A stretch of 64,000 nt of DNA from Alphaproteobacteria bacterium (GCA_017471705.1 JAFUSH010000034.1:43934-107933), one strand, 5' to 3'; counted from the stretch's first letter, positions 36,744-64,000 are shown. The notes: generated from the sequence alone by a model not told the origin. Program-made: numbers and translations.

Positions 36744-36744
36744 A

Positions 36745-37866: not shown

Positions 37867-37877
37867 ATTTCAAACTC

Positions 37878-39689: not shown

Positions 39690-39698
39690 AATTGCCTT

Positions 39699-42555: not shown

Positions 42556-42571
42556 TTGCTCTCTCCTTAAA

Positions 42572-44194: not shown

Positions 44195-45143
44195 CTACCA
44201 GAACTCGGTTGCCTTTATAGAAGGTTGCAACCGGAGCCGGTCTGGCGCGTGCAAATGCTCTTATCAGTGCGGAAGCCACATCGGCAAAATTTCCTCTGAA
44301 CATAGCGCCGGCATTTAAAGTGTAGTTACGATTCGTTTTCCAAATCAATCTCCATCCGGCTTCATCGCTCCACATAGTCAGAAGTTCTTTAAGGCTCTGT
44401 CCTTCTTCTGCTAACCAATCCTTATTGGCTGAACTTTCCTCAGATGCTTCGTCATCACCGTCTTGAATATTTCCCCCTTGAGCAATATTTCCTTGTGTGC
44501 CGCCGGTAGTATTAGAAACGGTATATCCGTTTTGTACATATTGAGGTTGTCCTGCAACTGCCGGAGTGTTCGCATAAGCTGCTTGCCCCTGTCTGCCGTT
44601 TACCGGAACCTGTCTGCCGGCTGTCGGAACTTGTCCTCCTCCGACTGTAGGAGCCGTTCCGCCGTTTGCAGTTACCATCGGAGCATTGCCGTTTGCCGCG
44701 GGAGCAGCTCTTCCGTTATGCGGAATCGGAGCCGCCGGATTCCACGATTGATCATATCCGTTGTCAGCGATAACGCTGTTTTCGTATTCCACCACTTCAT
44801 TATCTATGCTCGGCGGAATAGCCGCAGATATATTATTTCCGGCGCCCGCTTGTGTAATACGATGATCTCGAGGCGAACGTTCGCCGTATCCACGAAAATC
44901 TGCAGCACCGCGAGTATAATTTATGTTGCCGGCATCACTGCATTCGCTGTAACCGTCGGCATTTTCAACGCAAACCGCCGTATATTCTCGATTACTGGTG
45001 CAGATGCCGTTTTCGCATTCTTCTTCCAGATAGCTTCTGTTGCTGAGGGCGCCGATACAGCCCGACGTGCTTAAAATGCAACAAATTAAGCCGGTAACAG
45101 CCAGTTTGTTTGTTATTATTTTTCCTTCAAATTTATTTCTCAT
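44160..45143 (-). CDS. PilL-like lipoprotein with C-terminal TcpQ-type domain
   Basis: Lipobox LSTSGC. A Gly/Asn/Ala/Pro-rich linker. The C-terminal ~90 aa reads DWLAEEGQSLKELLTMWSDEAGWRLIWKTNRNYTL...FRGNF, resembling the TcpQ/PilL domain. It is immediately upstream of, and overlapping, the secretin. Confidence 0.55.
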   Translation of the reverse strand: MRNKFEGKIITNKLAVTGLICCILSTSGCIGALSNRSYLEEECENGICTSNREYTAVCVENADGYSECSDAGNINYTRGAADFRGYGERSPRDHRITQAGAGNNISAAIPPSIDNEVVEYENSVIADNGYDQSWNPAAPIPHNGRAAPAANGNAPMVTANGGTAPTVGGGQVPTAGRQVPVNGRQGQAAYANTPAVAGQPQYVQNGYTVSNTTGGTQGNIAQGGNIQDGDDEASEESSANKDWLAEEGQSLKELLTMWSDEAGWRLIWKTNRNYTLNAGAMFRGNFADVASALIRAFARARPAPVATFYKGNRVLVVETMEDENAYD

Positions 45144-45191
45144 CGTATTTTCCTATAATACACGTTAAAATTGAAATATCAACATCGGATT

Positions 45192-46841
45192 CTAATACCA
45201 AGGATTATCGGCTCGTTTCATTGCCTTTATCTTGTCATCTTCCGATGCGTATCGTACATTCCTAATAATAAATGAGTTTGGCTCCCTATCGGTAAAAATT
45301 ATGTTAATTTTATGATAATCAACACCATTATTGGCCAAAATCTTGTACAACAGCTTTAAACGCTTTTCCTGCAAAGCGTACGGAGCTGTCTTGTCTATCC
45401 TTATTTCGATAAACACATCTTCGTTTTTCACCGAATTATCTGCGAAAGCGTGTAGCCATTCAAGAGTTTGACCGGAAATTTCCGCCCGATTCGGCTGAAA
45501 AGATAATTTTAATTCGGAAGGAGTAATGTTATCATCATTGCTACCCCCGATGCCTAAAAGCTTATTAAATATTGAACCTTCGCTTTTTTGAGATTTTTTA
45601 TTGTTATTTTTACTTTGAGTTTTCGGAGCAGTGATATTATCGTTACCGGTCTTCTTTTTAGAACCTGAAAACCACTCGGCGATACTGTCCGATAAACTTT
45701 TAGAAGTTTCTTCGTCTGCATCGACATCATCGTCTTCTTCAAAATCTTGAAAATCATCGTCGTTATCATTGTTTGATTTGGTACTTGATGAATTATCAAA
45801 ATATTTATCATCATCTAAGGCCGGAAGTGTGTGTTTGGCACGCAGTTCGCGCTCTAACTTCAAATTTTCTTCCGAAGATGAAAATTGCGGTGTCAGATTA
45901 CGCTCATTCGCAATGTTTTCCGGTATGGGAATGACTAAATTTTTTTGCATTCTGTATTCTTCGGTCGGTTGCTCAATAACTTCCTGATCCGGAGAAATAA
46001 TGTTATCTTGATGCTTTGCCGCGTAAACATTAGCGGAATTTTCCTCAGATTTTTTATTCGAAGTCTCTGCAACTTCCCACGGATTTGTATATCCTTCGTC
46101 GGAAGAAGATAGGCCGGCCGAAAATTCGGATTTCCCAATATATCCGTCGTTATTTACCAACGGTTCGGTCACAGCCGCATAGGTATCGGCTCCCAAATTA
46201 TCGGTACTTACGCCGCTTGAAGCCATAGCAATTTGGTTTTCATCGGCACTGTCCGAAAATACTACAGTTCCGTTTTCCGTTTTATAGTGGTGTACCAAAG
46301 GAATTCTGAAAACCGGAGCTTCAGAGGCATCGGCTATTTGCAATTCTTCGGATTCTTCTTTCGTTTCAGCCACCTCTAAAACAGAAGAATTTTCAGCATC
46401 AGCTATGTCTAAGATAGAGGCATCTTCAATACGCAAATCATCGTTGTCCGAAACCTTAACTTCGGCGGACTTTTCATCTAATTCGGTATAATCGGTAGTT
46501 TCTGGTCGGTATAGCACTGTATCGGAAGAACCTGATTTGACGCTTTGATTTGAAATCAATTTATCTTCATCGTTATACGGCAATTCATTATGTTGTTCCA
46601 AACTTTTGAATTTGTCATATAACGGATCATTTTCTTCATTGGCGGCAAAAAGCTCAATATTTTGAGCCGGCAAATTTTCAATATATTCTTCCGTCGGTCC
46701 GTTTTCATTCAAAGACAAAACAAAATAAGCCTTGGTAACCGAAAATACGGCAACCAGTGAGAGAATAAAGCTTCCTAAAAAGCATTTTAAACCAAGTTTA
46801 GGCATTCCAAAATCCCATACATTCATTAAAGGTATCGGCAC
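45192..46841 (-). CDS. membrane-anchored highly acidic low-complexity protein (549 aa), first gene of the pil-like operon
   Basis: N-terminal TM/signal anchor LGSFILSLVAVFSV, long D/E/S/N-rich stretches (DNDDDFQDFEEDDDVDADEE), and a conserved-looking ~100-aa C-terminal domain. Confidence 0.45.
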   Translation of the reverse strand: MPIPLMNVWDFGMPKLGLKCFLGSFILSLVAVFSVTKAYFVLSLNENGPTEEYIENLPAQNIELFAANEENDPLYDKFKSLEQHNELPYNDEDKLISNQSVKSGSSDTVLYRPETTDYTELDEKSAEVKVSDNDDLRIEDASILDIADAENSSVLEVAETKEESEELQIADASEAPVFRIPLVHHYKTENGTVVFSDSADENQIAMASSGVSTDNLGADTYAAVTEPLVNNDGYIGKSEFSAGLSSSDEGYTNPWEVAETSNKKSEENSANVYAAKHQDNIISPDQEVIEQPTEEYRMQKNLVIPIPENIANERNLTPQFSSSEENLKLERELRAKHTLPALDDDKYFDNSSSTKSNNDNDDDFQDFEEDDDVDADEETSKSLSDSIAEWFSGSKKKTGNDNITAPKTQSKNNNKKSQKSEGSIFNKLLGIGGSNDDNITPSELKLSFQPNRAEISGQTLEWLHAFADNSVKNEDVFIEIRIDKTAPYALQEKRLKLLYKILANNGVDYHKINIIFTDREPNSFIIRNVRYASEDDKIKAMKRADNPWY

Positions 46842-47077: not shown

Positions 47078-47309
47078 TCAATTTAACACTCAAAGAGTAT
47101 ACCGAAGTTAAACAGAGATATATTTCTTATCAGTTTATTAACCTTTTGGTGTTATTCGTGGTGTGTATAACTGGTGTATTGTAGAAATTTTTGTGAAAAT
47201 TCAGATTGATATAGACAAATGGGATATATTTTAACAAAAGTCTGGAAATTTTTTGTAAAATGATTTACAATAACAGTGTGATTAAGAATATATGTTAAGG
47301 AGAACTGAA

Positions 47310-47672
47310 ATGAAATTCTTAAAAAACAACATTATGAGCATTTTGGGTATGACCTTCTTATTTACGATGGTTATGCTGGGCGATGCAAACGCTACGGTGT
47401 TTGAAGATGTAAAAACAAAACTCGTAGATTTGTTCAAAAATGCTAAAATGGTAGTATTTATTATCGGTGGTTTCGGTTTGATTTGTTTGGCTTTCCAAGC
47501 AATCTTCGGAAAAGTTAAATGGGCTTGGTTTGCTGCTCTGGCTTTCGGTTTGGCCGTTGTGGCTGCTGCCGGTGCTATTATTAACTACGCTGCTAATAAC
47601 GATGTTGCTACCGGTAAGAACTTCTCAGATACATTGGGTGACGGTTCCGGTGCATCTAGTATGGGTCATTAA
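47310..47672 (+). CDS. virB2: VirB2/TrbC-family T4SS pilin, paralog 1
   Basis: Signal peptide followed by two hydrophobic helices separated by a short loop (VVFIIGGFGLICLAFQAIFG...WAWFAALAFGLAVVAAAGAI). AAGGAG RBS before the ATG at 47310. Confidence 0.7.
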   Translation: MKFLKNNIMSILGMTFLFTMVMLGDANATVFEDVKTKLVDLFKNAKMVVFIIGGFGLICLAFQAIFGKVKWAWFAALAFGLAVVAAAGAIINYAANNDVATGKNFSDTLGDGSGASSMGH

Positions 47673-47743: not shown

Positions 47744-48064
47744 ATGTTGTGCAATAGTATAAAGAGATTTTTGTACGAGAACAGATATGCAATTATCTTA
47801 TTTGTTTCTTTATTCTTTTTCATAACCGATGCCTCTGCTGAGACATTCGGTGCATTATCGACTGCCGGCACGGCAATTTTTCAGGGCTTGCGCAAAATTA
47901 TATATCCGGCGGCTACCATAGGTATAGCCTGTGTTTGTATCGGAGGTATGTTCGGCAGTTTTAACTGGAAGTGGTTAGTGGCAATTCTGTTGGGTGTGTT
48001 TATTATAGCCACGGCTAATTCCGGAAACGGTGTGGATGCTATTGCTATGGACGGCAGTAATTAG
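47744..48064 (+). CDS. virB2: VirB2-family pilin, paralog 2
   Basis: The same architecture (signal; ATIGIACVCIGGMFG...WKWLVAILLGVFIIA). GGAGG RBS. Confidence 0.65.
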   Translation: MLCNSIKRFLYENRYAIILFVSLFFFITDASAETFGALSTAGTAIFQGLRKIIYPAATIGIACVCIGGMFGSFNWKWLVAILLGVFIIATANSGNGVDAIAMDGSN

Positions 48065-48074
48065 GAGAATGCAG

Positions 48075-48473
48075 ATGAAAAGAATCGGCGTATTATGTTT
48101 TTTTATTTTAATTTGTTGTGTTGCTTTTGTTTCTCCGGCATTTGCCGAGCCTTCATCCGGTGATGCTATTTGGACTAAATTAGCTGGCAAGGCCAGTACT
48201 ATAGGGGTAGGTTTGCAGAAAAGCGGCTTTATTATAGGCGGTATCGGGTTAATCTTTTTTTCATTTATGGCAATTTTTAACAAGATATCGTGGAAGAATC
48301 TTGCCTATATTATGCTGAGCTGTTTTGTGCTTTCGGCAATGGTTGCATTGGTTAATTATTTTTCGGCAAAAGATGCAACCAGTACGGCTTCGTACTCAGA
48401 ATTTAACGGTCCTGACGGCGAGGTTTCTTTTGAAGGAGGCGTAGCTCCTGCCGGAGGGACGGCGCATAAATAG
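48075..48473 (+). CDS. virB2: VirB2-family pilin, paralog 3
   Basis: Signal MKRIGVLCFFILICCVAFVSPAFA and two hydrophobic helices. RBS AGGAGAATGCAGATG. Confidence 0.65.
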   Translation: MKRIGVLCFFILICCVAFVSPAFAEPSSGDAIWTKLAGKASTIGVGLQKSGFIIGGIGLIFFSFMAIFNKISWKNLAYIMLSCFVLSAMVALVNYFSAKDATSTASYSEFNGPDGEVSFEGGVAPAGGTAHK

Positions 48474-48482
48474 GGGAATATA

Positions 48483-48923
48483 ATGAGGTTGTTTGCTTGG
48501 CTGAGTGCTTTTTGTTTTTTTATATCGGTATCCCCTGCTATGGCATACATAGAAGAAGATACTGCCGGAATGACGGAAGCAGATGCCGGTGAGCAGAATA
48601 CCAATATGTATAAACTGAATGCACGCGGTGATTATTTTATCAAGAAACTGAAAAAAATAGATGAATATGCCAGTAAAAATAGTCGGTATGAAGTGCCTAA
48701 TCTGTCCGATATAAATGACATAAACAGTTTTGAACAAAAGAATAAGGAAGAAGAGCAAAATAAATTGATTTTAGCCGACGTGGTTAAAATGACGTCTAAT
48801 CCGCAACAACTGAAAGTTATTCTTAAATCCGATGTTTATACGTCATTGACGGCTATTAACGAAGTGCGCGATGCACAAGTTGCATCGGTATTGCAAAGAC
48901 AAATTGCCGGAGGACGCCGATGA
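48483..48923 (+). CDS. small secreted protein (146 aa) between the virB2 paralogs and virB3
   Basis: Signal peptide MRLFAWLSAFCFFISVSPAMA, then a hydrophilic Lys/Glu-rich body. It overlaps the virB3 start by 4 bp. Confidence 0.45.
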   Translation: MRLFAWLSAFCFFISVSPAMAYIEEDTAGMTEADAGEQNTNMYKLNARGDYFIKKLKKIDEYASKNSRYEVPNLSDINDINSFEQKNKEEEQNKLILADVVKMTSNPQQLKVILKSDVYTSLTAINEVRDAQVASVLQRQIAGGRR

Positions 48924-49210
48924 GAGAAGAGATTCTGAAAGCGGTTGCGCAACCTCCGAAAGTACTGTGGGCTCCGATGGTACCTGCTCTCATAAATTTA
49001 GGCGTTCAGTTTCCGATGATGTTTATCGGTATGGGTATCGGCGGAGCTAACCCGCTGTATTTTGTTGCTTGTATTATAATTGCGCACGCCGTGTTGGTGG
49101 GGTTGGGAATAAAAGAGCCGCATTTGTCCACAATGCTGCAGGCTTACGGTCAGACATACAGAAAAACAATAAATCTTTATGTGGTAAAGGGTAATAAGTT
49201 TGAGCCATGA
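48920..49210 (+). CDS. virB3: type IV secretion system protein VirB3
   Basis: 96 aa, two TM. LWAPMVPALINLGVQFPMMFIGMGIG is VirB3-like. Translationally coupled to virB4. Confidence 0.75.
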   Translation: MREEILKAVAQPPKVLWAPMVPALINLGVQFPMMFIGMGIGGANPLYFVACIIIAHAVLVGLGIKEPHLSTMLQAYGQTYRKTINLYVVKGNKFEP

Positions 49211-51636: not shown

Positions 51637-51739
51637 TTGCTGATTTTGTATGCTGCGATCTACGGTGCTCTCTATGAAGTCGTTCCTCGCACGATGCAGT
51701 ACATTCTGCGTCAAGGAATCTGACCTTTCAACGTATAGC

Positions 51740-52040
51740 GTTGCTTCTGATTTCGCGTCATTCTGAACCCTGAGCATAGCGAATGGGTGAAGAATCCATT
51801 TCGTTCCGCCGGAACGAAACAACGCCATCGGCGTTGCTGGATACTTCGCCGCCAATGCGGCTCAGTATGACGATAAAAAGTCAGCGTTGCTTCTTTATTA
51901 TTTAATCGGAAGATCCTCTGATTTTTGCTTTTGGTCACAAAAGCAAAAAAGGGATGACTTTATTGTTATATTTTAGTCGGAAGCCTCTCTGACGATTCCT
52001 GCGGAATCGAGGGGTGACTTTATTATCTTTATAGTAATAT
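51740..52040. repeat. structured intergenic element with a 22-bp perfect palindrome, a long-range imperfect inverted repeat and a degenerate ~60-bp tandem duplication
   Basis: ATTTCGTTCCGCCGGAACGAAA (51798-51819). CGTCATTCTGAACCCTGAGC versus GCTCAGTATGACG. Units AATCGGAAGATCCTCTGA...GGGATGACTTTATTGTTAT and AGTCGGAAGCCTCTCTGA...GGGGTGACTTTATTATCTTT. GC-enriched relative to the flanks. Confidence 0.4.
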
Positions 52041-52226
52041 CTCCGAATGCACGGTGAAGTAAATTGGTCAATATTCTTAATAATAGACAATTTGTCCATT
52101 AAAATGTAACAAAAATTTAACATTTTTTTTATTAAAATTGTGATACACTAATAAAAGGAGAATGGGTTTACTTTGCGCTGAAGATATGTTAGCATAAGAA
52201 TATCTGGGCACTACAGGGAGGTTATT

Positions 52227-53453
52227 ATGATGGTAAATACAAAGAGATTCAATATTTTGGCCGGCGTTGCCTTTATGATAACGTTTGCGGCGCCTGATGC
52301 AAAAGCTTTTCCGTTGCTTTGTGGGGATCCTTCCCGTTTAGTAGCCAGCGCTAAGGTTACAATGCAGGAAATTATGATAATCAAGCAAGAAGTTGAGAGT
52401 AATCTGCGAATCATTGAAGAAATTCGCAACGGTGGCTTTGCCGCAGCCGGTGCGATGATTTTCGAGAAAATTCAAAACGGTGATTATGATCGCTTCGGTA
52501 AAGCTTTGAGTAATGTTAAAACCAATGCGCAGGATATGGCACATAATGTGGCGGAACGTGAAGAAAGAGCTAAAAGGGAAAAAGAGCTGAGAGAAAGCGG
52601 TATGAGCGCTAAAGAAGCTAAGGCTAAGGCTCAACAAGAATCCGCCGAGAGAATGGTAGAATGGCAGAAAAAACAAGACGAAGCCAGAGAAAAAGCTAAA
52701 TCTGAGCGCGGTTCAAACGCTTTTACAAATTCGTATAACTGGCTGAAAAATAATCAATCATTTACCAGCGGCGCCAGCACTGCTTTAAGAGGTGTTGACA
52801 GCGGCAATTGGGGACAGGCTTTAAGCGGTGCGGCAGGTGCCACCGGAGGTGCAATCAACAGCGGCGGCGAATCCACACTCGGAAACATTTTCCAAAATGC
52901 GGCAGGCGGTGCCGGAAATGCTCTGAACAGCGCGCTTGACGGCAATTGGGGTAATGCCTTTAATGCAGCGGCCGGAGGCGCCGGTTCCGCAATTGGCGGC
53001 GCGACTGGATCCGAAGGTATCGGTAATACCATCGGTGCGATTGGTAATATAGGCGCCGGTGCTTATGATGCTATCAGCAGCGGCGATGGTTTCGGCGGTA
53101 CCGTAAATAATTTAATTAATAACAACCAGATAAACTCCGGACTTACCGGTTTAGAGAACGGCTATAATCAAACACAGGAAGAGCGCGAGGCCGCGCTTAA
53201 AGCTCAAGAAGAAGCTGCGAAAAAACAAGCCGAGGAATTAAAAAAAGGATTAGACGAACAGATAAAGAAGGATCAAGAAGAGAGAAAGAAAGAGCAACAG
53301 AAAAAATGTCAGGAATGCCGTAAAAATGCTCAAGCCGGAGCAGAAGCTGCGGCGAAGGCTGCCGGTAAAACGGGATTGGCGGCTCAAGCAGATGCAGAAG
53401 CAAGGGTTAATAGCCAATGTTTAAGTGCTTGCGGTGGTTTTTCAGGTATGTAA
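52227..53453 (+). CDS. secreted coiled-coil / glycine-rich GNWG-repeat protein with C-terminal CxxC...CxxxC motif (paralog A)
   Basis: Signal peptide, an N-terminal coiled coil, two ~47-aa Gly/Ala/Asn repeats (GNWGQALSGAAGATGG...; GNWGNAFNAAAGGAG...), a Lys/Glu coiled coil, and a C-terminal CQEC...CLSACGG. Confidence 0.6.
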   Translation: MMVNTKRFNILAGVAFMITFAAPDAKAFPLLCGDPSRLVASAKVTMQEIMIIKQEVESNLRIIEEIRNGGFAAAGAMIFEKIQNGDYDRFGKALSNVKTNAQDMAHNVAEREERAKREKELRESGMSAKEAKAKAQQESAERMVEWQKKQDEAREKAKSERGSNAFTNSYNWLKNNQSFTSGASTALRGVDSGNWGQALSGAAGATGGAINSGGESTLGNIFQNAAGGAGNALNSALDGNWGNAFNAAAGGAGSAIGGATGSEGIGNTIGAIGNIGAGAYDAISSGDGFGGTVNNLINNNQINSGLTGLENGYNQTQEEREAALKAQEEAAKKQAEELKKGLDEQIKKDQEERKKEQQKKCQECRKNAQAGAEAAAKAAGKTGLAAQADAEARVNSQCLSACGGFSGM

Positions 53454-53465
53454 AGGAGCAAAACA

Positions 53466-54740
53466 ATGAAGAATAAAATATTAAACAGAATCTTATTTTT
53501 AACAGTTATTTCGGTAATGGTATTGCCCCTTCCGTACACAGTATCGGCGCAGACATTTACACCGCCGACTAGTAATGATGATCCGATTGACGGCGGTTCT
53601 ATCGGTGAAGTTGTGGTTACAGGCAAGAAACCTACATATACGGCGAATTTCAGCGGATTTAATCCTACTCCGCTGGATGGAGCAACTATCCCGACCATAA
53701 ATGTTACGGCAACTGCTCCTGCTCCTGTTGTCACTTCAGATGGTAATGATGATCCGATTGACGGCGGTTCTATCGGTGAGGTTGTGGTTACAGGCAAAAA
53801 ACCTACATATACGGCGAATTTCAGCGGTTTCAATCCTACTCCGCTGGATGGAGCAACTATCCCGACCATAAATGTGGGTAATTCTTATGACGGTCCGAGT
53901 GAAGAAGATGGAGAAGAAGGCACTGCAGGTGAGAGCTATACAATGACTTCGACTGTTCGTACGAATGATAACGGTAGTATAAACGAAACTACGGACAGCA
54001 GTTCATTTACAATAACCGACGGCGGAACAGGAAATGGTACAGATTTATCTGCAGCAATCGCCAATGCTGGCGGTAATATAGTTCCGGATCCAACGACTAC
54101 AACTATTAATCCCAGTGATGTAAAAATAGATAATTTACCGCAGCCGACAACTACAACGGTAAAGGAAGAGGAAGATTTAAGTCAGTATACCGGTTTGTAT
54201 AACGGTCGTCAGTTATTACCGGATATTATGGCGAGACATTGCCGAATTAAAGGTGAAGATGTTGCTAAAGATGTAAGTTTGTATGTTGAATGTATCAAAC
54301 AGTATGTTTCGGAAATGAACAGTTCCAATGCGGCGGCAAAAGCTAAAGCTCAGGAAGAATTTGAGATATTGCGTTATAAAGGATTGTTGGATATGGCTTC
54401 CAATGCGATGACCAAGTCGCAAAGTGTTCTCAATTATGAAAACACGATGAACGAATACAATAAAGCTGATCAGGATATGCAGACCGAATTTGACGATAAT
54501 CACGCTTTGATAGCAACAATGTCGTTTATTACCGATGTTATGAACAGTTTCAGAGAACTGCAGGCTGAACAACTTAAGTATTTGGCGATAAGCGGTATTG
54601 TTAACGTTGATCCGGCGGTTGTTTTGGCAGATGAAGAAGAGGAAGAACCGGAAGAAAAGAAACCTGCATCAACAAACGGTAATGCTGGAGATGCGGAAAT
54701 ACATACCACGGAAGCAAATACCACGATTAAACATAATTAA
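53466..54740 (+). CDS. secreted protein with a 57-aa tandem repeat, a Thr-rich linker and a C-terminal helical domain
   Basis: Signal peptide. The unit NDDPIDGGSIGEVVVTGKKPTYTANFSGFNPTPLDGATIPTINV occurs twice. PTTTT linkers and an acidic tail. Confidence 0.6.
   Translation: MKNKILNRILFLTVISVMVLPLPYTVSAQTFTPPTSNDDPIDGGSIGEVVVTGKKPTYTANFSGFNPTPLDGATIPTINVTATAPAPVVTSDGNDDPIDGGSIGEVVVTGKKPTYTANFSGFNPTPLDGATIPTINVGNSYDGPSEEDGEEGTAGESYTMTSTVRTNDNGSINETTDSSSFTITDGGTGNGTDLSAAIANAGGNIVPDPTTTTINPSDVKIDNLPQPTTTTVKEEEDLSQYTGLYNGRQLLPDIMARHCRIKGEDVAKDVSLYVECIKQYVSEMNSSNAAAKAKAQEEFEILRYKGLLDMASNAMTKSQSVLNYENTMNEYNKADQDMQTEFDDNHALIATMSFITDVMNSFRELQAEQLKYLAISGIVNVDPAVVLADEEEEEPEEKKPASTNGNAGDAEIHTTEANTTIKHN
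53571..53876 (+). repeat. two 135-bp near-identical direct repeats (53571-53705 and 53742-53876) inside a coding region
   Basis: About 5 mismatches over 135 bp. The 171-bp period is in frame. Confidence 0.8.
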
Positions 54741-54778: not shown

Positions 54779-56422
54779 ATGAATAAGAGAATGTTAGCAA
54801 TATTCATTGCCGCAGCGCTGGTAGTTTTTCCGAAAACCTCCAAGGCCGATTTGGATGTACTGTCTATTGCCCAAGATCAAATAACGTCAATTACGGAAAA
54901 AGTCGGTGCTATTGTTAAAAAATATACGCAAATTCAAGCAAGTTTGCAGGAATTGAGCTTAAACCGTAATATTGTGTCGCAGTTGAAGGATAAAGTAAAA
55001 TCAGAATTAAAGTCAAGAGCTATGGCTTTTTACGGAGATTTGAAAGATATGGCAATGGCGGAAGGAATGGCATTTCTGAAAACTTCTTTAAGCAGTGTGT
55101 CGTTACCGGGGGTCGGTCAATACATCGATTTGGGAGGCTTTATTAATCCGAAACTGACGGTGGCAGTCGGCAAAACTTATTTAAAGAAAAAGCATAAAAA
55201 GAATGATGTACAAAGTACTGTGGCGCAAGATGAGCGCAGTAACAATCTGATGATAGATAATTTATCTGTTTTATTTGCCAACAGTTTGGTTCGTCGTAAG
55301 CAGATTATAGAAGAAGATCCTTGCAGTTGCGTTGCCGAAGCAGGCAGAGATTGCAGCGAAGAAAAACAAAAATGTGAAGATCAAGAAAAAGAATTTAATG
55401 AAATGAGCGATATCAATGTTGTAAAGAATAAACAGTATGGAGTTATGCTTAACGCTAATCATCGCTGGTTAAAAATTAAAGAAGCGGTTGCAATGTATGC
55501 AAAGATGAAAGGCGAGGCAATGATGAATCAGGGTAATATAGATGATATCAGTGCTATAACCGGTGAAATAGAAGATGAGGAAGAAGAGGATGACACCGGT
55601 GAAGATGCAGTTCAGGCTTTAATGCAAAACAAAATCAATCCGTTGGATTTGACGAATTCAGTGAAAGACAGTTTAAATAAAATTAAAAGCGGCGATTATA
55701 CAGGTGCTTTTGCCGGCGCAATGGGGACAGCTACCGATTTATACGGTAATGCTCCCGGCAGTTGGGATAGTGTTACTAAAGCTATGCAAGAAGTTACCAC
55801 CGGTGCAGGTGCTTTGAATAATGCTTACCATAATGCCGAGAACGGAAACTGGGGCGGCGCGCTTAATTCAGCTTTAGGCGGTGCCGGAAATATTGTAGGA
55901 AGTACCGGTAATGAAGGGTTGGGTAATATATTCAATAATGCCGCCGGAGGAGCCGGAAACGCGCTTAACTCTGCACTTAGCGGAAACTGGGGCGCGGCCA
56001 TAGGCAATGCGGCAGGCGGCGCCGGAAATGCAATCAGCGGTAGCGGTAATGATGTTTTGGGCAGTTCAATCGGTGCGGTCGGAAGTTTAGTTAATGTCGG
56101 AGTAAATGCGGCAAATGCCGGCGGAAATTTAGGCGATATTATTGATAACACCGTGGGCAACAGTCAAGCTCAAGGAGCGTTGAATGCATTGTATGGTGCG
56201 TATGATGCGCAAAATACGCAAAACGCGGCCATTGTAGAAGCTCAGCAAAAAGCGGAAGAAGAACGTAATAAAAAATTTGAAGAAATGAAAAAACAGCAAG
56301 AAGAAGAGATGAAAAAGCGCAAGCAGGCTGAGTGCAAAAAATGCAATGAAGATAATGAAGCTTTGTTAAAAGCGGGCAAGCCGCTATCATCGCTCAAATC
56401 TTGTATCGGTGTTTGTATGTGA
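54779..56422 (+). CDS. secreted coiled-coil / glycine-rich GNWG-repeat protein with C-terminal CxxC...CxxxC motif (paralog B)
   Basis: Signal peptide, a VirB5/TrbJ-like N-terminal coiled coil, a mid Cys cluster CSC...C...C, and GNWGGALNSALGGAGN.../GNWGAAIGNAAGGAGN... repeats that resemble paralog A at the DNA level. C-terminal CKKC...CIGVC. Confidence 0.6.
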   Translation: MNKRMLAIFIAAALVVFPKTSKADLDVLSIAQDQITSITEKVGAIVKKYTQIQASLQELSLNRNIVSQLKDKVKSELKSRAMAFYGDLKDMAMAEGMAFLKTSLSSVSLPGVGQYIDLGGFINPKLTVAVGKTYLKKKHKKNDVQSTVAQDERSNNLMIDNLSVLFANSLVRRKQIIEEDPCSCVAEAGRDCSEEKQKCEDQEKEFNEMSDINVVKNKQYGVMLNANHRWLKIKEAVAMYAKMKGEAMMNQGNIDDISAITGEIEDEEEEDDTGEDAVQALMQNKINPLDLTNSVKDSLNKIKSGDYTGAFAGAMGTATDLYGNAPGSWDSVTKAMQEVTTGAGALNNAYHNAENGNWGGALNSALGGAGNIVGSTGNEGLGNIFNNAAGGAGNALNSALSGNWGAAIGNAAGGAGNAISGSGNDVLGSSIGAVGSLVNVGVNAANAGGNLGDIIDNTVGNSQAQGALNALYGAYDAQNTQNAAIVEAQQKAEEERNKKFEEMKKQQEEEMKKRKQAECKKCNEDNEALLKAGKPLSSLKSCIGVCM

Positions 56423-56439: not shown

Positions 56440-57705
56440 ATGAAAAAATATAATAAAAAGATTTTAATACTTGTAGCCGTTTCTTATCTGTCGGTGACTG
56501 CTCCGGCAATGGCTGTAACCAAATTGGAAGCTACAGGACCGGCTGCCGATATTGTTAACAAAATTCAGAAAGTTAAAGAAAAGTTCGAAGATATTCAAAC
56601 AAAGATAATGAAGGAGAAGGAAAAGTGGACCAAAAAGGCAGAGGCTTTCTTGGATAAAACACTTGGAACCGAAGGCGCGGCTTTGTTTAAGCAATATGTT
56701 GTAGAACCGGGAGCCGGTATTGTTAAAAGTGTTGCTAAAGGTCAGTATAACGCAGGTGATTTCAGTTTAAGCGGGTTTACCAGCGCCATAAAATCGGAAC
56801 TTGGCAATTACAAACTTGATTTTGCAACTTTGGTGTCGCAAGCAAAAGATATGGCTAATACTGCGGCCAAAGCCAGACTTGAAAAGAGCAGAGCCATTGA
56901 AATTCAAGTTGCTAAGCTGCAATCTGAATGGGATGCAAAGAATAATCTTAATGCAACCGTGAAGTCGGCTCAGTTGGAAGCAGAACTTGAAGAATTGGCT
57001 AAAAGAATATCTGGATTGAAAGAGCAAGCGGCTCAACTAAACAATAAGACGCTTGAGGAAACCGAAGCTCAAAAGAAAATGCAGGAAAAGATGGTGGCAA
57101 TGCAGGATTTGATGGCAAGTTACAGCGGTAAAATATCTCAGGATGATTTACTTAAAAAACTTAATGCCGAGGCAATGTCATTGTTCACGCTTAAAACCGA
57201 TGAAGAAGAAGATCAGGCGATATATTCTGCCAGTATGGAAAAGCTGTTTTTAGGTAAGTATGATTTCGGAACATCTGAGAATTTGGCGAGAATTCGCCGC
57301 GCTCGTCAGGAAGAATATTATAAGTCCGAAAAGAATATTCTCAAAGTTATTGTCGAAACTTATAACAGTATTGAAAATACCGAACAAAACATAAAAGGCT
57401 GTACGCAGGCAAGCGGAGAAGCACAGGCTATATTCGGCGGCAGTGCTATGCGTGTATGTGTCGATGTTCAGATAATAAAGATAGCAGCACAATATATGGA
57501 AATGTTATTGGCGCAAATTCAACAGGAAGCCAGTTTGGAGATTCAAAACTGGGCGGATATATACAAATTACCGGATTACAACCGTGATTATACCAAGTTT
57601 AATTTGGATGATTACGTTCTGACCAAAGATGACCTGAAAAAGAATTTGAAAAGTATGGCAACCGGAGCCATCGGTGATGCAATGATGAAATTTAAAGGTT
57701 TTTAA
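56440..57705 (+). CDS. secreted coiled-coil protein (421 aa)
   Basis: Signal MKKYNKKILILVAVSYLSVTAPAMA. GGGAGG RBS before the ATG at 56440. Long helical heptad regions and two Cys. Confidence 0.55.
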   Translation: MKKYNKKILILVAVSYLSVTAPAMAVTKLEATGPAADIVNKIQKVKEKFEDIQTKIMKEKEKWTKKAEAFLDKTLGTEGAALFKQYVVEPGAGIVKSVAKGQYNAGDFSLSGFTSAIKSELGNYKLDFATLVSQAKDMANTAAKARLEKSRAIEIQVAKLQSEWDAKNNLNATVKSAQLEAELEELAKRISGLKEQAAQLNNKTLEETEAQKKMQEKMVAMQDLMASYSGKISQDDLLKKLNAEAMSLFTLKTDEEEDQAIYSASMEKLFLGKYDFGTSENLARIRRARQEEYYKSEKNILKVIVETYNSIENTEQNIKGCTQASGEAQAIFGGSAMRVCVDVQIIKIAAQYMEMLLAQIQQEASLEIQNWADIYKLPDYNRDYTKFNLDDYVLTKDDLKKNLKSMATGAIGDAMMKFKGF

Positions 57706-57717
57706 GAGAGGTGTGAA

Positions 57718-60700
57718 ATGAAGAAAATAGTTTATTTTATATCCGTTTTAATGACTTGCCTTTGTCTTAACCGCAATGCGCAGGCGTTTGTATGGCCGGA
57801 TTTTACGCCTCTGATTCCGTTTTCTCCGCAATTTTGCGTTATGTGTATTCCACCGGCGATTGATTGGGCATATAATACCGTTGACCAAGTTAAAGATGCG
57901 AAGAATCGTTTGAAAGAAATGACCGACGTGACCAAAATTAAACAGGCGCTTTCGGCATATGCGGCAAATCTCGGAAATATGGCGCTTAATTGGGCAACAC
58001 AAAAATTATCCGCACGCAAAAAAGTTATATCGTATTCCCGTACCATTATGGATAGTGAGCGCGAGGGAGTGGATGTAAAAAAAGAAGATTCGGTTAAAGT
58101 TGATTTCGTAAATCTGTTTTTGCAGTATCCTTCGACTAAAAATAAAATAAAGAAAGCATATCAGAAAAAAGGAGATGCCATTAAAACCGATACATCTCTT
58201 GAGATGTACATTACCGCTTCCGAAATGATGAAAGAATTATGCGGTGCTAAGGGTAAAGGATGCGAATTAGCAACTACTTTAGCAGATTACGACGGAGATG
58301 TAAGCACCGAATTTAAAGATTTTAAAGATATGGGAATGATGTTGCAATTAAGTCTGGTTGAGCAATGCTTTATGCAAGGTCAATATTGTGGTTTAATCGG
58401 TACAATCGGTTGCGAGCCGGGTAAAGATGGAGACAGTAGTGCGGAGCCGTCGGAAGAACAACCGACAGAGGGAGAAAGCACCGATGAAGATAAGGTTTGT
58501 CACTGGAAGGCCAGTTTGCAGCTAGCCCGTATGTATGATAAAATTATGCGCTACAATGAAATGCTTGTTTATATGCAGTATCAGTATGAAGCTGTTAAAG
58601 GTATTGATACTCTGGCAAAAATCAGAGCTGCTAAAGAAAATGAAGGTACTAAGGGTGAGCAAGGTGCTTTTCTTATGGATAAATATTTGCCGCAAAAGAA
58701 AAATGTGGCCTACAGCACATTATCAGACACTTTTGCGTTTGCCGATGAAGAACTCACAGATGAAGATTTAGAAGAGTTTTCTAAATATGAAAAAAGTATG
58801 TCCAATCGCGAAAATGTATTGGGCGGCAACTTTGAAACTCTTAAAGAAGCAAAAGGTTTTGAAACGGTTTTGGATGATAAAAAAGATGATCTTGCCAGTA
58901 TGCAATTTTTGGAAGAAACCAATAAAGCACTGAAAGATGCATTGGTATATCACAATATGAAACAGATGTTGCCCGATTACAGAGGCACATTTAAAACTTT
59001 AAAACAAGCCGAGGAATATCACGATAAGACTGTGGAATATTTACAGGATTCCGGCGAATGTATAAAGGGATATTTGGAACCTCATTACAATAATCCTGCT
59101 AAAGTGTGGTTTGGTGAAGGGTGTGATTATTTTGACCAAGGAACCATATATTGTCACTATTCACCGGAAAAAGAAATAAATGACAGTGAGGAAAGCAAAG
59201 GTTTGTATGATGAGCTGTGTCCGGACAATCCTCAATATAAGTGTTTTATTCAAAAACTGGAAGAAAGCGATATGAATAAAGGTGTTGCCGGAGCTTTGTT
59301 AGCTTTTTATAATGAAGGCAAAACAGCTGATGCGTTGCAGGAAACTCAGACTTATCTCAAAGAGGGCGAACAGTCACCGGAAGTTGAAACAGAAAAAACT
59401 TCGGAAAAGTCATATACCGCTCAGGTTACCATAGAAGGCGGAGATGAGGTTTCCGGAGATAAAGAAACGTATGTTACCGGTCGTGATGATTCTGCGATGA
59501 TGGGCAGGGATAACGCCAATGCCTCAGATGTGTTGCCGAGTGCCAGTTCGGTTCAAGCAAAAGCAAAGACTACTCGTGATGATCAGGAAGCCGATGAAAA
59601 TATAAAAGATCCTAAGGCTGCCGAGAGTTTGGCCGATGAGACACGGAAAGGACACCTGATGAATTGGATATGGGGTGCTACTATGGCTAATGTCATTTCT
59701 GCCGATTTAGACAGTTCTTCTCCAAAATTCGGAACACGTAAAAATAAGTTTCCGTTATGGAATGACCAGAAAGAGTTTTATGACCAATATATTGACGGCA
59801 AATATGATAACATTTCTCAATATATGGAAAGAGCTCCGATGCCTGATGGTATTATGAGTGCTGCCGAGGCGATAAACGAAGTGTATAATTATCCTGAGAT
59901 AGTTAAAGAAATAAAAGATGCGTTAGGCAATGTAACGGATACGATTACGGTGACTAAAGATGAACAGCAGGGATTTATAGCTGATGCTATAGAAGCTGTT
60001 AAGGATGATTTTAAGGATGTAAAAGACGAAACAAAAGAAACAATGGACAGCTTGATTGAAACGGAAACGGCTGAGCTTGAGGCGTTAAAAGCAGAACATA
60101 ATGCCAAGATTAGTAAATTATTGGAAGAAAAAGAATTGCTTCAGAGCCGTTTGGGACAAACCAATAGGGATTTGGATGCCGCAAATCAGGCATTTAATAA
60201 TGCCGGAGGAAAAATAGCTTCTTCAGTAAATACCGACAGAGCAACTAAGGAAAATGACGAAGCGAATAGAGAATTGCAGGCTAAGTACCGCAATCCGGTG
60301 GATTTATCCCAATCTCCGGCAAATAAGAAATTTGCGGGGATGAAGGCGGAAAGCGCAGAAAACAAAAAAGCTGCCGAAGCCGAACTTAAAGCCAAAGAAA
60401 AAGAAGCTCAAAACTTGGAAAAGAGTTCGGAAATGTTGGCTAAGTTGCTGAAGGCTAAAAAAGAAGAAATTGAAAAAGAACGCCGTCAGTTTGTTAAAAA
60501 ATACAGCGAAGCCGAAGAAAATGCCCGCAACGGATTTAATGATAAGGTGGAAGCTTATCTGGAAGAAGGTGTCGTTCTGAAAGATGAAGATGTCACTGCT
60601 ACTATTGAAAATGCAATAGTAAGAGCATCTGAGAAACTTTCCAAAGAGTTGTCAAGTCAGTATGGTACGGCGATTTCTATTGAACTGCCGACTGTAGCAG

Positions 60701-62379
60701 CAAGCGGAGCCGGACAAATGATTGCCTGTCTGCGTGAAAAAGCATCGCAAACTGCCAAAGATACGAAAGAGCAGGATATGAATTCGCTGAAAGCAAACGG
60801 CAAAATATATTATAATGAGTATGCGCCGGATGTTACGAATAAACACAACTCAATGATTAATAAAATGAAGAGTATAAGCGAATGTGCAATCGAAGGCGTA
60901 CCTTCCGAACCTATAGCCGAAAAAGTTTTCGGAGATATGTGCGATTCCGTTAATTGTACTACTCCTGATTTAAGCAAAGACGAAAACGGTTTGATAAATT
61001 ATTTTGTCGGTGCTTTGGGTGTAAGAGATGACTTGAAGGCTCCTACTCCGCCGGTAGCATTTTCATCGGCGCCGATGCGTGAAATTTTCCACTTTGATAT
61101 TGCTGACTACGAAAGTATTGAGAAGTATTACGAAGATGATGAGCCGAAAAATCCGAGCAGTTCGGATATTACCATAACGGCAGAAGGTTTCTTGAAGTTG
61201 GGTGAGGATATGCAATCCGGTCAAAAAGAGGCACAACAGAAATTGGAAAATCAAGGCGAAGTGGCCGGAACATTCCCTGAAATATGGAAGTATGTATTGA
61301 GACGTCATACTTACGGTCAAAAACAATTTGATCTAAAGAGGCTGTTGGGCAGTAAGGAATTAGGTGATGATGTTCGCGGTAATCCGGATAAGAGTTATTT
61401 GCGTTCAGGCAGTTTCCCTTGTTATATTGATAACAATGTAATTGATGCTTCGGCGGTGGTTAAATTGGTAGGTTTCAGACTTGTCCCGAATAATTTCAGC
61501 TATTCGATAAACAGTACGCCGGATAAGGATTTGTATACTAAAGTTCCGTGTAAAGGGTTGTTGATTAAAAAAGGAAGAGTGTTTGATTTTACGGCTGACG
61601 GAAGTCCACCTAACGGCGTACCTGTAAACGGTGAAGGAAGTATCAGCGAAACCAGTGAATTAGGAACTATTTTAGGATATGTTCCTGACGCAAACAATAA
61701 TATAGTGCGAGTTCTATTCGGTCACGGAATACCTACGGATATGAGCAAGGCTCCGCGTAAGCTGACATTTAATTCTACGCTGCAAAAAGCTGTGAATATT
61801 ATTTCCGAAACGGAAGAATTAGGCGAAGATAAAAGTAAAGATGCGGTATTCTATATGGCTAACCGCACCTTGCTTGACCGCAATCAGTTCGGTGATTATT
61901 TAAATCAGGTAGAGCAAGAAGCTATAGCGCGTGAATCTTTGGCGAAAATTCAAAACCAGATAGATGAGATATTGACAAATCTGCAAGATGTTTTTTACGG
62001 CACCGGTATTGTTATATCTGATGAGTTTAATTTACTGAATGATGATGATTATAAAGAGGCTGCCGAGGCTTTGGATGAACAAAAGCAAATATATCTTAAC
62101 AGAGCCGAAACGGAAATTCAAAAAGTTAAGGGTGTTTCCGAGACGGTAAAAAACAAGACGGAAACGCTTTTGAAGACCATTGCCGTTTTACGTGCGGATA
62201 GCGATGAAATTATTCATTTGAACGGCGGTGAGGATATAAATCAGGTTAAGTCCAGAATAGCCAATCAGAGTGCTGATAATTCGGTCGGAGATGAATATGA
62301 AAAAATGGGTGACGAAGCTCATCTGCGCCGGATAAGAGATTTACAGCCTCCTTTCTGTGAAGTTCATCCTTATAAATAA
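57718..62379 (+). CDS. giant secreted cysteine-rich coiled-coil protein (1553 aa)
   Basis: Signal MKKIVYFISVLMTCLCLNRNAQA. About 24 Cys, many in CxxC/Cx(n)C pairs. A central ~400-aa Lys/Glu coiled coil. No TM helices. Confidence 0.6.
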   Translation: MKKIVYFISVLMTCLCLNRNAQAFVWPDFTPLIPFSPQFCVMCIPPAIDWAYNTVDQVKDAKNRLKEMTDVTKIKQALSAYAANLGNMALNWATQKLSARKKVISYSRTIMDSEREGVDVKKEDSVKVDFVNLFLQYPSTKNKIKKAYQKKGDAIKTDTSLEMYITASEMMKELCGAKGKGCELATTLADYDGDVSTEFKDFKDMGMMLQLSLVEQCFMQGQYCGLIGTIGCEPGKDGDSSAEPSEEQPTEGESTDEDKVCHWKASLQLARMYDKIMRYNEMLVYMQYQYEAVKGIDTLAKIRAAKENEGTKGEQGAFLMDKYLPQKKNVAYSTLSDTFAFADEELTDEDLEEFSKYEKSMSNRENVLGGNFETLKEAKGFETVLDDKKDDLASMQFLEETNKALKDALVYHNMKQMLPDYRGTFKTLKQAEEYHDKTVEYLQDSGECIKGYLEPHYNNPAKVWFGEGCDYFDQGTIYCHYSPEKEINDSEESKGLYDELCPDNPQYKCFIQKLEESDMNKGVAGALLAFYNEGKTADALQETQTYLKEGEQSPEVETEKTSEKSYTAQVTIEGGDEVSGDKETYVTGRDDSAMMGRDNANASDVLPSASSVQAKAKTTRDDQEADENIKDPKAAESLADETRKGHLMNWIWGATMANVISADLDSSSPKFGTRKNKFPLWNDQKEFYDQYIDGKYDNISQYMERAPMPDGIMSAAEAINEVYNYPEIVKEIKDALGNVTDTITVTKDEQQGFIADAIEAVKDDFKDVKDETKETMDSLIETETAELEALKAEHNAKISKLLEEKELLQSRLGQTNRDLDAANQAFNNAGGKIASSVNTDRATKENDEANRELQAKYRNPVDLSQSPANKKFAGMKAESAENKKAAEAELKAKEKEAQNLEKSSEMLAKLLKAKKEEIEKERRQFVKKYSEAEENARNGFNDKVEAYLEEGVVLKDEDVTATIENAIVRASEKLSKELSSQYGTAISIELPTVAASGAGQMIACLREKASQTAKDTKEQDMNSLKANGKIYYNEYAPDVTNKHNSMINKMKSISECAIEGVPSEPIAEKVFGDMCDSVNCTTPDLSKDENGLINYFVGALGVRDDLKAPTPPVAFSSAPMREIFHFDIADYESIEKYYEDDEPKNPSSSDITITAEGFLKLGEDMQSGQKEAQQKLENQGEVAGTFPEIWKYVLRRHTYGQKQFDLKRLLGSKELGDDVRGNPDKSYLRSGSFPCYIDNNVIDASAVVKLVGFRLVPNNFSYSINSTPDKDLYTKVPCKGLLIKKGRVFDFTADGSPPNGVPVNGEGSISETSELGTILGYVPDANNNIVRVLFGHGIPTDMSKAPRKLTFNSTLQKAVNIISETEELGEDKSKDAVFYMANRTLLDRNQFGDYLNQVEQEAIARESLAKIQNQIDEILTNLQDVFYGTGIVISDEFNLLNDDDYKEAAEALDEQKQIYLNRAETEIQKVKGVSETVKNKTETLLKTIAVLRADSDEIIHLNGGEDINQVKSRIANQSADNSVGDEYEKMGDEAHLRRIRDLQPPFCEVHPYK

Positions 62380-63292: not shown

Positions 63293-63481
63293 ATGTATAA
63301 AAAAATTTTGATTTTTGTTGCTTTTTTAATTTTATCAGCCTGTAGTTTATTCGGTTCTTATTATGAACCTGAAGCTGTGGGTATAGGTAAAGATATAAAC
63401 GAGTTGAAGTTATCTCCTTGTGCTTGTATGCAGATTGAGTTAATAAAAGAAGTTCCGGATTGGTTTTGGGAAACAATTTAA
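63293..63481 (+). CDS. virB7: small lipoprotein, VirB7-like
   Basis: 62 aa, lipobox LSACS. It lies between two virB8 paralogs, as in the Rickettsiales rvhB8a-rvhB7-rvhB8b arrangement. Confidence 0.45.
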   Translation: MYKKILIFVAFLILSACSLFGSYYEPEAVGIGKDINELKLSPCACMQIELIKEVPDWFWETI

Positions 63482-63495
63482 TTTAGGGAAAAGAA

Positions 63496-64000
63496 ATGGC
63501 GGATCAACTCGGTATAAACAGTACGCAACAGCGGCTTATCGGTTCGGAACAAACCAGAAGCGCTATGGCACAGCGTTCTCAGGTAAATCAACATTTGAAT
63601 CATAGTGAAGATTCATTTGTGGTAAATGCCAGTGAAAAAAGATATTTATGGACAGCTCGTGCTTTTGCCGTAGTTACCGCTATAAGCATTTGCTGCAATC
63701 TGCTGTTATTACTGACGGTGGCGAATATTTTGCCTCTTTATCGTGTTGAGCCGTATTTGTTGACATTATCTAATAAAGAAGAGCAAGTGTACCGAATTGT
63801 TCCTTACAGTAAAGATATGGAATCGCAAAAGTCTATAACGGAGACGTTTGTGAGACAGTATATTTTATTACGTACCACATTGCTGCCGGATATTGAAGAA
63901 ATGCAATCTCGTTGGCAAAACGGCGGCGATTTGCAAGAAATGTCTTCTCCGATTGTTTATCAAGATTTCCTGAAAATTACCGGTAACAAGTTTATGCAAA
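63496..64000 (+). CDS. virB8: type IV secretion system protein VirB8 (paralog b); 3' end lies beyond the window
   Basis: N-terminal cytoplasmic region, a TM (AFAVVTAISICCNLLLLLTVANIL), then ETFVRQYILLRTTL. The ATG at 63496 follows a GGGAAAAG RBS. Confidence 0.7.
   Translation, partial: MADQLGINSTQQRLIGSEQTRSAMAQRSQVNQHLNHSEDSFVVNASEKRYLWTARAFAVVTAISICCNLLLLLTVANILPLYRVEPYLLTLSNKEEQVYRIVPYSKDMESQKSITETFVRQYILLRTTLLPDIEEMQSRWQNGGDLQEMSSPIVYQDFLKITGNKFMQ

Follow-up and report, generated by a model that had tools for sequence, protein, structure and literature searches.

The question raised by this locus is what a very large exported protein, resembling no known family, contributes to the type IV secretion system (T4SS) in whose operon it is encoded. 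The gene under study occupies positions 57718 to 62379 of a 64,000-nucleotide (nt) stretch from an Alphaproteobacteria bacterium (GCA_017471705.1 JAFUSH010000034.1:43934-107933), the whole of which is referred to below as the window. Its product of 1553 amino acid (aa) residues is identical (100%) to NCBI entry MBQ8481886.1, which is titled 'MAG: hypothetical protein IJ532_05080 [Alphaproteobacteria bacterium]'. The analyses reported here lead us to conclude that the protein represents a new family, and that it is a lineage-specific component of an unusual T4SS that is widely conserved among gut bacteria. Concerning its role, the reading that we place first, albeit tentatively, is that of a disulfide-stabilised, surface-exposed accessory or contact protein of a chromosomal VirB-type (rvh-like) T4SS; its function is probably in cell-surface contact.

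The gene sits in a VirB-type T4SS operon (Table 1), which bears out the T4SS association suggested for the protein in a first-pass annotation of the sequence. Four exported proteins are encoded directly upstream, in agreement with the distal position in a run of secreted proteins that the same annotation had assigned to it. Gene order in the cluster is essentially invariant, the orthologue being located directly upstream of virB8 in all of approximately 60 species, and even where the cluster is broken (loci L017, L020 and L030) the break falls only after the first virB8, leaving the gene with the virB3-virB4 half. Each cluster holds a single orthologue, no paralogue was found elsewhere in the four clusters compared, and a search for internal paralogy with the neighbouring genes returned none. 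The protein is a fixed, single-copy member of the T4SS operon.

Relatives of the protein are numerous. A word-indexed search returned 41 of them, and a genome scan with patterns that included the FPLWNDQK motif located 76 loci in species-representative genomes. When the C-terminal profile was run exhaustively, as a hidden Markov model (HMM), against 1.84 billion representative proteins, 275 clusters were retrieved, 239 of them at E<=1e-10, a figure that counts representative clusters at 50% identity and is a lower bound for the family. Among the best 150 of the 275 HMM matches the same architecture was observed throughout, with no bridge to other families. Nearly all titled genome records are those of uncultured Alphaproteobacteria or "proteobacteria" from the rumen or from the human, mouse or rabbit gut (the human gut sets being Hadza, UMGS and HGM), and a few bins are named otherwise, for example Bacteroidaceae and Ruminococcus gnavus. 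The intracellular lifestyle assumed in the earlier description of the host is not supported by these data. The G+C content is approximately 40%, the relatives all derive from rumen and gut metagenome-assembled genomes, and nothing observed here shows that the host lives inside cells.

A pseudogene or assembly artefact was considered and rejected on the basis of an intact frame that is identical in independent assemblies. Seven contigs encode the same 1553-aa protein, including separate Logan assemblies of two sequencing runs, and since the protein is present on independent assemblies a frameshift or mis-assembly is excluded. Homology to an unrelated cytoplasmic protein, the second finding that would have overturned the first-pass annotation, was likewise not encountered. 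A Shine-Dalgarno sequence (GAGAGG) lies 6 nt 5' of the start codon, and the intergenic gaps measure 12 nt from the preceding stop codon to the gene and 11 nt from the gene to virB8; the upstream spacing indicates probable operon coupling with the preceding gene. Promoter and terminator scans gave no signal above shuffled background, and the window contains no Rfam match. Relative to the orthologue of locus L006, which is 83% identical, the synonymous divergence (dS) of the first 60 codons (57718-57897) is approximately 0.25, compared to approximately 1-2 over the remaining codons. The low dS points to possible nucleotide-level constraint, or else to recent exchange, at the 5' end.

The first-pass annotation had recognised no family for the protein, and more sensitive searches did not find one. 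Pfam and NCBIfam scans of the protein and of the neighbouring exported proteins produced noise only, a PDB sequence-profile search with the family produced coiled-coil noise only, and Foldseek returned no match in the PDB with E<0.09 for either half of the AlphaFold2 model, the best C-terminal E-value being 0.4. The VirB5 families of Pfam and NCBIfam were not matched, and alignment of the family profile to Ti-plasmid VirB5 by hhalign gave a probability of 0.6%. A literature search found no relevant account of the T4SS of this lineage. By these profile and fold comparisons, the family is without detectable relative in any library searched.

A more specific proposal of the first-pass annotation was kinship with the mating-pair stabilisation proteins TraN or TraG of F-type systems. 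F-plasmid TraN is an exported, T4SS-linked protein with approximately 20 Cys residues which acts in cell contact and is part of the F-type gene set. The 1553-aa protein shares with it a general resemblance only, in being exported and T4SS-linked and in possessing many paired, conserved Cys residues, a feature that is not specific to TraN. The Pfam families TraN, TraG_N and TrbL were not matched even at E<=1, nor was any other tra family of Pfam at that threshold or anything in NCBIfam, and hhalign assigned probabilities of 0.3% and 0.1% to F-plasmid TraN and F TraG, respectively. The surrounding cluster also argues against the proposal, as it is of the VirB/P-type (rvh-like) and not of the F-type: it lacks TraH, TraF, TraU, TraW and the F-type TrbC, it encodes VirB8, a CagX-family VirB9 and a VirB10 with a TrbI domain, and it carries no sign of conjugation, relaxase and coupling protein (VirD4) being absent nearby, and is chromosomal, as judged by the yidC-rnpA-rpmH genes beside it. 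Furthermore, TraG_N, VirB6 and TrbL proteins contain at least five membrane helices, in contrast to the 1553-aa protein, which is devoid of hydrophobic segments beyond its signal peptide. Homology to TraN or TraG is effectively refuted at the level of sequence profiles, and even a highly divergent homologue is scarcely credible.

The features of the protein are those predicted for an exported, disulfide-forming protein, namely a signal peptide, the lack of a membrane helix and conserved Cys pairs. Its N-terminus, MKKIVYFISVLMTCLCLNRNAQA followed by FVWPD, has the shape of a Sec/signal peptidase I signal as read directly from the sequence, and all orthologues start with similar signal peptides. 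This is the sole hydrophobic stretch, no 19-residue window elsewhere exceeding a Kyte-Doolittle value of 1.26, so that the signal peptide and the absence of transmembrane helices noted previously are both confirmed. Identity as a lipoprotein was rejected, as the Cys residues of the signal peptide are not conserved. With regard to the Cys residues, the six motifs quoted in the first-pass annotation are all present (C40/C43, C175/C182, C217/C224/C232, C469/C479, C501/C509 and C1075/C1080); the pairing that it described is real and approximately 15 Cys residues are kept across the family, mostly as close pairs, although the total is 22 instead of about 24 and includes two within the signal peptide. 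Thirteen are packed into residues 40-509. C448 and C1547 are invariant, and C469, C479, C501, C509, C1235 and C1278 occur in >=90% of the sequences. The Cys density was previously thought to be unusual, yet at 1.4% it compares with a mean of 1.17% for the other 32 long open reading frames (ORFs) of the window and with 1.6% for the cytoplasmic VirB4; since it lies near the window mean and below VirB4, the protein as a whole is not unusually Cys-rich.

Conservation and AlphaFold2 models divide the mature protein into two conserved modules separated by a variable spacer (Table 1). The N-terminal module has a conserved mature N-terminus (PDxTPLxPFxPQxCxxC) and the motifs LFLQYPS and HNxKQxLPxYR, and its residues ~469-513 are modelled as a small beta Cys-knot (C469/C479/C501/C509); the N-terminal model has a predicted local distance difference test (pLDDT) score of 51 overall and of 75-87 at residues ~430-530. 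In the block that is most conserved in the family, R643, W650 and G653 precede the sequence FPLWNDQKxFYDQYIDGKYxNI, and W650, W681, Y688, Y691 and K695 are invariant. The spacer was formerly described as a heptad region of about 400 aa; the Lys/Glu-rich region in fact comprises approximately 250 residues (roughly 750-1000), with stretches free of Pro and Gly at 753-812 (60 residues) and 875-938 (64 residues), and the heptad test is passed by short segments only. PDB sequence-profile matches in the spacer are to generic coiled coils. Motifs of the C-terminal alpha/beta module are YFVG, APxREIFHFDxxDY, PxIW, a beta region from FPC1235 to C1278, SELG, LTFN and RNQFGDYL; the C-terminal model has a mean pLDDT of 66 and a predicted template modelling score of 0.54. 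Heptad-like segments (1398-1435 and 1464-1494) are found in the helix bundle that follows, and across the family the tail conforms to P-[YVF]-C-[AM]-x-Y at or near the C-terminus.

The N-terminal model also provides the grounds for regarding the protein as a pore-forming or translocon-type helical protein that is delivered to a target membrane: it consists largely of long helices and weakly matches YaxA, XaxA/B, ClyA and AhlC in Foldseek (E 1-4). Those matches are not significant and come from a model with a pLDDT of 51; moreover, no amphipathic or hydrophobic hairpin is present at a Kyte-Doolittle maximum of 1.26, and the protein is strongly acidic in net charge, with 273 D+E compared to 193 K+R. 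Such a role is very improbable.

The evolution of the gene bears on where its product may act. Compared to the L006 orthologue, the ratio of non-synonymous to synonymous divergence (dN/dS) is approximately 0.07 for the 1553-aa gene, 0.012 for VirB4 and 0.06 for the first VirB8, these values being rough as dS is saturated in the comparison. The gene is under purifying selection. At the protein level its divergence is nonetheless far faster than that of the core parts: identity to loci L003, L004 and L005 amounts to 29, 35 and 23% for the 1553-aa protein, as against 87, 89 and 72% for VirB4, 68, 68 and 62% for VirB9 and 79, 82 and 61% for the VirB7-like lipoprotein. The highest dN of the gene (0.2-0.35) is found in the spacer, and spacer expansion is the main source of the size differences in the family, whose members are 1090-1855 aa long. 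It is this combination of conserved terminal modules, a freely variable spacer and fast divergence relative to the core that makes us regard the protein as exposed in preference to buried with a fixed geometry.

In the mechanism that we propose, the protein would be exported by the Sec pathway and its conserved Cys pairs would be oxidised in the periplasm. Its two conserved globular modules (residues 24-725 and 1001-1553) would dock it to the machine, most likely at the outer-membrane VirB7/VirB9 part and possibly via the invariant C-terminal Cys/aromatic tail, and the helical spacer of variable length would allow part of the protein to project outward. There it would serve in surface- or pilus-associated contact with a target, through adhesion or recognition, as a functional analogue, not a homologue, of contact proteins of the VirB5/TrwJ/CagL or TraN type; the function as a large adhesin that the first-pass annotation considered is possible. 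The tail offers one conceivable link to the machine. The conserved Cys residues are odd in number, an invariant one is placed 3-7 residues before the C-terminus, and the VirB7-like lipoprotein encoded next door carries an invariant SPCAC motif, from which one may speculate that a disulfide tethers the protein to VirB7 or VirB9.

Several observations weigh against the contact role. The disulfide tether to VirB7 or VirB9 stays speculation because invariant residues give no covariation, and we infer the localisation, the docking partner and the contact function, and any further partners, from sequence. The structure models are moderate (C-terminal pLDDT 66) or poor (N-terminal pLDDT 51), and match no adhesin or lectin fold, jacalin-like matches being at E ~7. 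No adhesion domain or repeat is recognisable in the protein by Pfam and NCBIfam scans. There is no sign of positive selection, the dN/dS matching the VirB8 level (0.06-0.07), and a periplasmic scaffold under relaxed constraint could also diverge this fast, without being exposed.

A scaffold of this type is the most serious rival. According to this explanation the protein, together with the four exported proteins encoded upstream, builds a periplasmic stalk or ring that replaces VirB5/VirB6 and is not exposed at the surface. The gene occupies the slot in which virB5, virB6 and virB7 are usually found, and no polytopic VirB6 is encoded between virB4 and virB8 in approximately 57 loci, nor onward to virB11. 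In these loci 204 proteins are encoded in the interval from virB4 to the 1553-aa gene, and only one of them has a hydrophobic segment beyond residue 45; the position that VirB6 canonically occupies is therefore taken up by soluble exported proteins throughout. Candidates for a multi-helix VirB6 were sought in all loci and rejected, as they proved to be antisense ORFs, an MlaE permease, or VirB2 proteins extended by long tails of Gly, Asn and Ala. Strict one-to-one orthology with fixed synteny, purifying selection at a level like that of VirB8, and a machine that is otherwise enlarged (a 1400-aa VirB10 and a bitopic protein of 1100-2100 aa) are also in keeping with a structural part. However, a part of fixed geometry should not tolerate lengths of 1090-1855 aa with an expanding spacer, nor a divergence so far in excess of the core parts; VirB6 may be encoded elsewhere in the genome, and the protein has no membrane anchor with which to take over the inner-membrane role of VirB6. 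From their hydrophobicity profiles, neither the 1553-aa protein nor 203 of the 204 proteins whose genes lie between virB4 and its own are predicted to be parts of a transmembrane channel. We rank the scaffold clearly behind the contact protein, and consider it unlikely.

The composition of the cluster invites a further explanation. Within the T4SS clusters, from virB2 through virB11 in loci extended by 10 kb on either side, no VirB6, VirD4, VirB1 or relaxase was found. The Ptl T4SS of the Bordetella ptx-ptl locus similarly lacks VirD4, although it retains a VirB6 (PtlD), and the ptx genes for its cargo precede ptl. By analogy with pertussis toxin, the 1553-aa protein might be a Sec-dependent cargo that forms its disulfides in the periplasm and is then passed across the outer membrane by the T4SS. 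Like the toxin subunits it is Sec-exported, has disulfide-type Cys pairs (conserved, and predicted here) and is co-transcribed with a T4SS without VirD4; four other exported proteins share this arrangement, and quick evolution is likewise compatible with a cargo. Unlike pertussis toxin, it has no toxin domain, nor any enzyme or host-interaction domain detectable in Pfam, NCBIfam, PDB sequences or PDB folds, and its gene is embedded once per cluster among the genes of the machine, whereas effectors usually have a patchy distribution and differ in number from cluster to cluster. The high conservation of the terminal modules suggests that they bind bacterial partners which are themselves conserved, and a VirD4 gene could be located at another site in the genome. 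A secreted cargo is accordingly an improbable identity for the protein, and less probable than a scaffold.

Of the known systems, the pilus-associated VirB5-type proteins (Agrobacterium tumefaciens VirB5, pKM101 TraC, Bartonella TrwJ and Helicobacter pylori CagL/CagI) are among the closest parallels to a contact protein of the kind that we favour. These proteins are Sec-exported, largely helical and without a membrane anchor; they act in contact and are fast-evolving, and their genes directly follow virB4. The 1553-aa protein is likewise Sec-exported, largely helical, encoded after virB4 and fast-evolving, the likeness being positional and functional only; it differs in being approximately seven times larger and in having two globular modules, a variable spacer, 15 conserved Cys residues and a C-terminal Cys tail.

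With the Rickettsiales vir homolog (rvh) T4SS, the cluster shares the order VirB8, VirB7-like lipoprotein, VirB8, several VirB2 copies, the lack of a detectable VirB5, and a run of three to five large genes after virB4 in the position of rvhB6a-e. RvhB6 proteins are polytopic membrane proteins with VirB6/TrbL domains. No multicopy VirB6 was found here from virB4 through to virB11, in contrast, and the 1553-aa protein and its neighbours carry a signal peptide only; within the extended loci a single VirB4 and a single VirB9 are seen, and no VirD4 follows VirB11. Hallmarks of rvh are the duplication of VirB8, the absence of a VirB5 analogue, multicopy VirB6, duplicated VirB4 and VirB9, and RvhD4 (PMC11077975). 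In the three loci with a broken cluster, unrelated genes such as MlaE follow the break and the T4SS is split into two loci, which recalls the way in which rvh genes are scattered over several islands in Rickettsiales. The Cag system (CagY, CagX, CagT, CagM and Cag3) is comparable in its lineage-specific enlargement, its giant repeat-bearing VirB10 and its CagX-family VirB9, and differs in that no Cag-specific protein family was detected here by Pfam.

Table 1. Features of the 1553-aa gene, its product and the T4SS cluster. Coordinates are those of the window unless a locus is named.
Feature	Position	Strand	Basis or remarks
Gene under study (1553-aa protein)	57718-62379	+	ATG start; stop codon within range
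Ribosome-binding region, GAGAGGTGTGAA	57706-57717	+	Read from sequence, between upstream stop and ATG
Signal peptide, residues 1-23 (MKK, hydrophobic core, AQA, then FVWPD)	57718-57786	+	Sequence
N-terminal module, mostly helical, Cys-bearing, residues 24-545	57787-59352	+	Conservation; AlphaFold2 model
Linker, acidic, gap-rich, poorly conserved, residues 546-630	59353-59607	+	Gap fraction 0.2-0.4; pLDDT ~30
Most conserved family block, residues 631-725	59608-59892	+	Column conservation 0.74
Spacer, variable, Lys/Glu-rich, alpha-helical, residues 726-1000	59893-60717	+	Composition; dN; length variation
C-terminal alpha/beta module, residues 1001-1390	60718-61887	+	Alignments; AlphaFold2 model
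C-terminal bundle of four long helices, residues 1391-1542	61888-62343	+	DSSP on model
C-terminal tail QPPFC(1547)EVHPYK and stop codon, residues 1543-1553	62344-62379	+	Tails of 65 orthologues
VirB2/TrbC pilin, first paralogue	47292-47672	+	Pfam TrbC
VirB2/TrbC pilin, second paralogue	47744-48064	+	Two hydrophobic segments; TrbC match of syntenic L003 gene
VirB2/TrbC pilin, third paralogue	48030-48473	+	Two hydrophobic segments; TrbC match of syntenic L003 gene
Conserved 146-aa exported protein, no assigned role	48483-48923	+	
VirB3-like, 96 aa, two membrane segments, overlaps virB4 start	48920-49210	+	Position and topology
VirB4 ATPase, 809 aa	49207-51636	+	Pfam CagE_TrbE_VirB, E 1.4e-14
Signal-peptide protein, first of four	52227-53453	+	
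Signal-peptide protein, second of four	53466-54740	+	
Signal-peptide protein, third of four	54779-56422	+	
Signal-peptide protein, fourth of four	56440-57705	+	
VirB8, first copy, 251 aa	62391-63146	+	Pfam VirB8, E 4e-12
VirB7-like lipoprotein, 62 aa, lipobox LSAC	63293-63481	+	Position; sequence
VirB8, second copy, cut by window end	63496-64000	+	Full L001 gene matches Pfam VirB8
VirB10 region	L003:17584-24011		
VirB10 region	L004:18372-24860		
VirB10 region	L083:5427-14188		
VirB2-like fusion	L070:2304-3665		
VirB2-like fusion	L062:1575-2654		
VirB2-like fusion	L065:2581-3888		

The four signal-peptide proteins upstream of the gene match no Pfam or NCBIfam family and have no internal membrane helix. 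The first and third share Gly/Asn/Ala-rich 'GNWG..ALNSAL' repeats, and in each of them a Lys/Glu-rich helix near the end leads into a C-terminal CxxxC motif; the L004 orthologues end similarly, in CxxxC or CxxC. Between virB4 and the first of them lie 590 nt without an ORF (51637-52226), compared to only 147 nt in L006; neither an Rfam family nor notable repeats were found in this gap. On the other side of the gene, the VirB7-like lipoprotein is very highly conserved across 53 orthologues (GSYYEPEPVG...ELKLSPCAC...PDWF.ETI). The VirB2-like pilin of a distant clade carries a fused C-terminal tail of 250-350 aa that is rich in Gly, Ala, Asn and Thr.

The downstream part of the cluster was observed in the same or related organisms, its end being traced through VirB10 homologues and provided by loci L083 and L084. 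It encodes VirB9 (Pfam CagX), the bitopic protein of 1100-2100 aa, VirB10 of approximately 1400 aa (with a Pfam TrbI domain) and VirB11, after which engB, yidC, rnpA and rpmH indicate that the cluster is chromosomal. VirB9 orthologues end in a conserved GDxxC...GVFCSVVRxQ, in which F-C-S-V-V is similar to the Y-C-A-V-Y found in the tail of the 1553-aa protein. The large VirB10 possesses beta-flower repeats (PF21784, PF21785) and a signal-peptide-like N-terminus, and the protein encoded before it combines one membrane helix with a cytoplasmic tail like that of VirB10; the two may represent a split or duplicated VirB10.

Divergent from the T4SS, the window holds a type IVb pilus cluster (36192-46841, minus strand) which resembles the R64 thin pilus and comprises TcpQ, a secretin, PAP_PilO, a T2SSE ATPase and a T2SSF platform protein. 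In 16 other loci, too, the 549-aa gene at its end (45192-46841) lies upstream of the T4SS, and L073 again contains TcpQ and the secretin, so that the pairing of pilus and T4SS looks to be conserved.

Lineage-specific accessory proteins endow T4SSs with specialised functions, for example in the Cag, Trw and Dot/Icm systems. The family described here was unannotated and has no structural relative, yet it is fixed in a highly conserved T4SS of the gut (VirB4 being 72-89% identical across the lineage). While it overturns no known principle, it represents a good target for structure determination and for the definition of a new family, and the 1553-aa protein is a prime candidate for the contact element of this T4SS, the target of which may be host epithelium, protists or other bacteria. 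A more far-reaching outcome, which we regard as improbable, is that the T4SS truly lacks VirB6 and VirD4 and that the 1553-aa protein and the four Sec-exported proteins form a previously unseen periplasmic or extracellular assembly, being either a replacement of the VirB5/VirB6 stalk or a cargo secreted in two steps. If true, either of the two would define a new architectural class of T4SS, and would do so in common uncultured bacteria of the human and ruminant gut.

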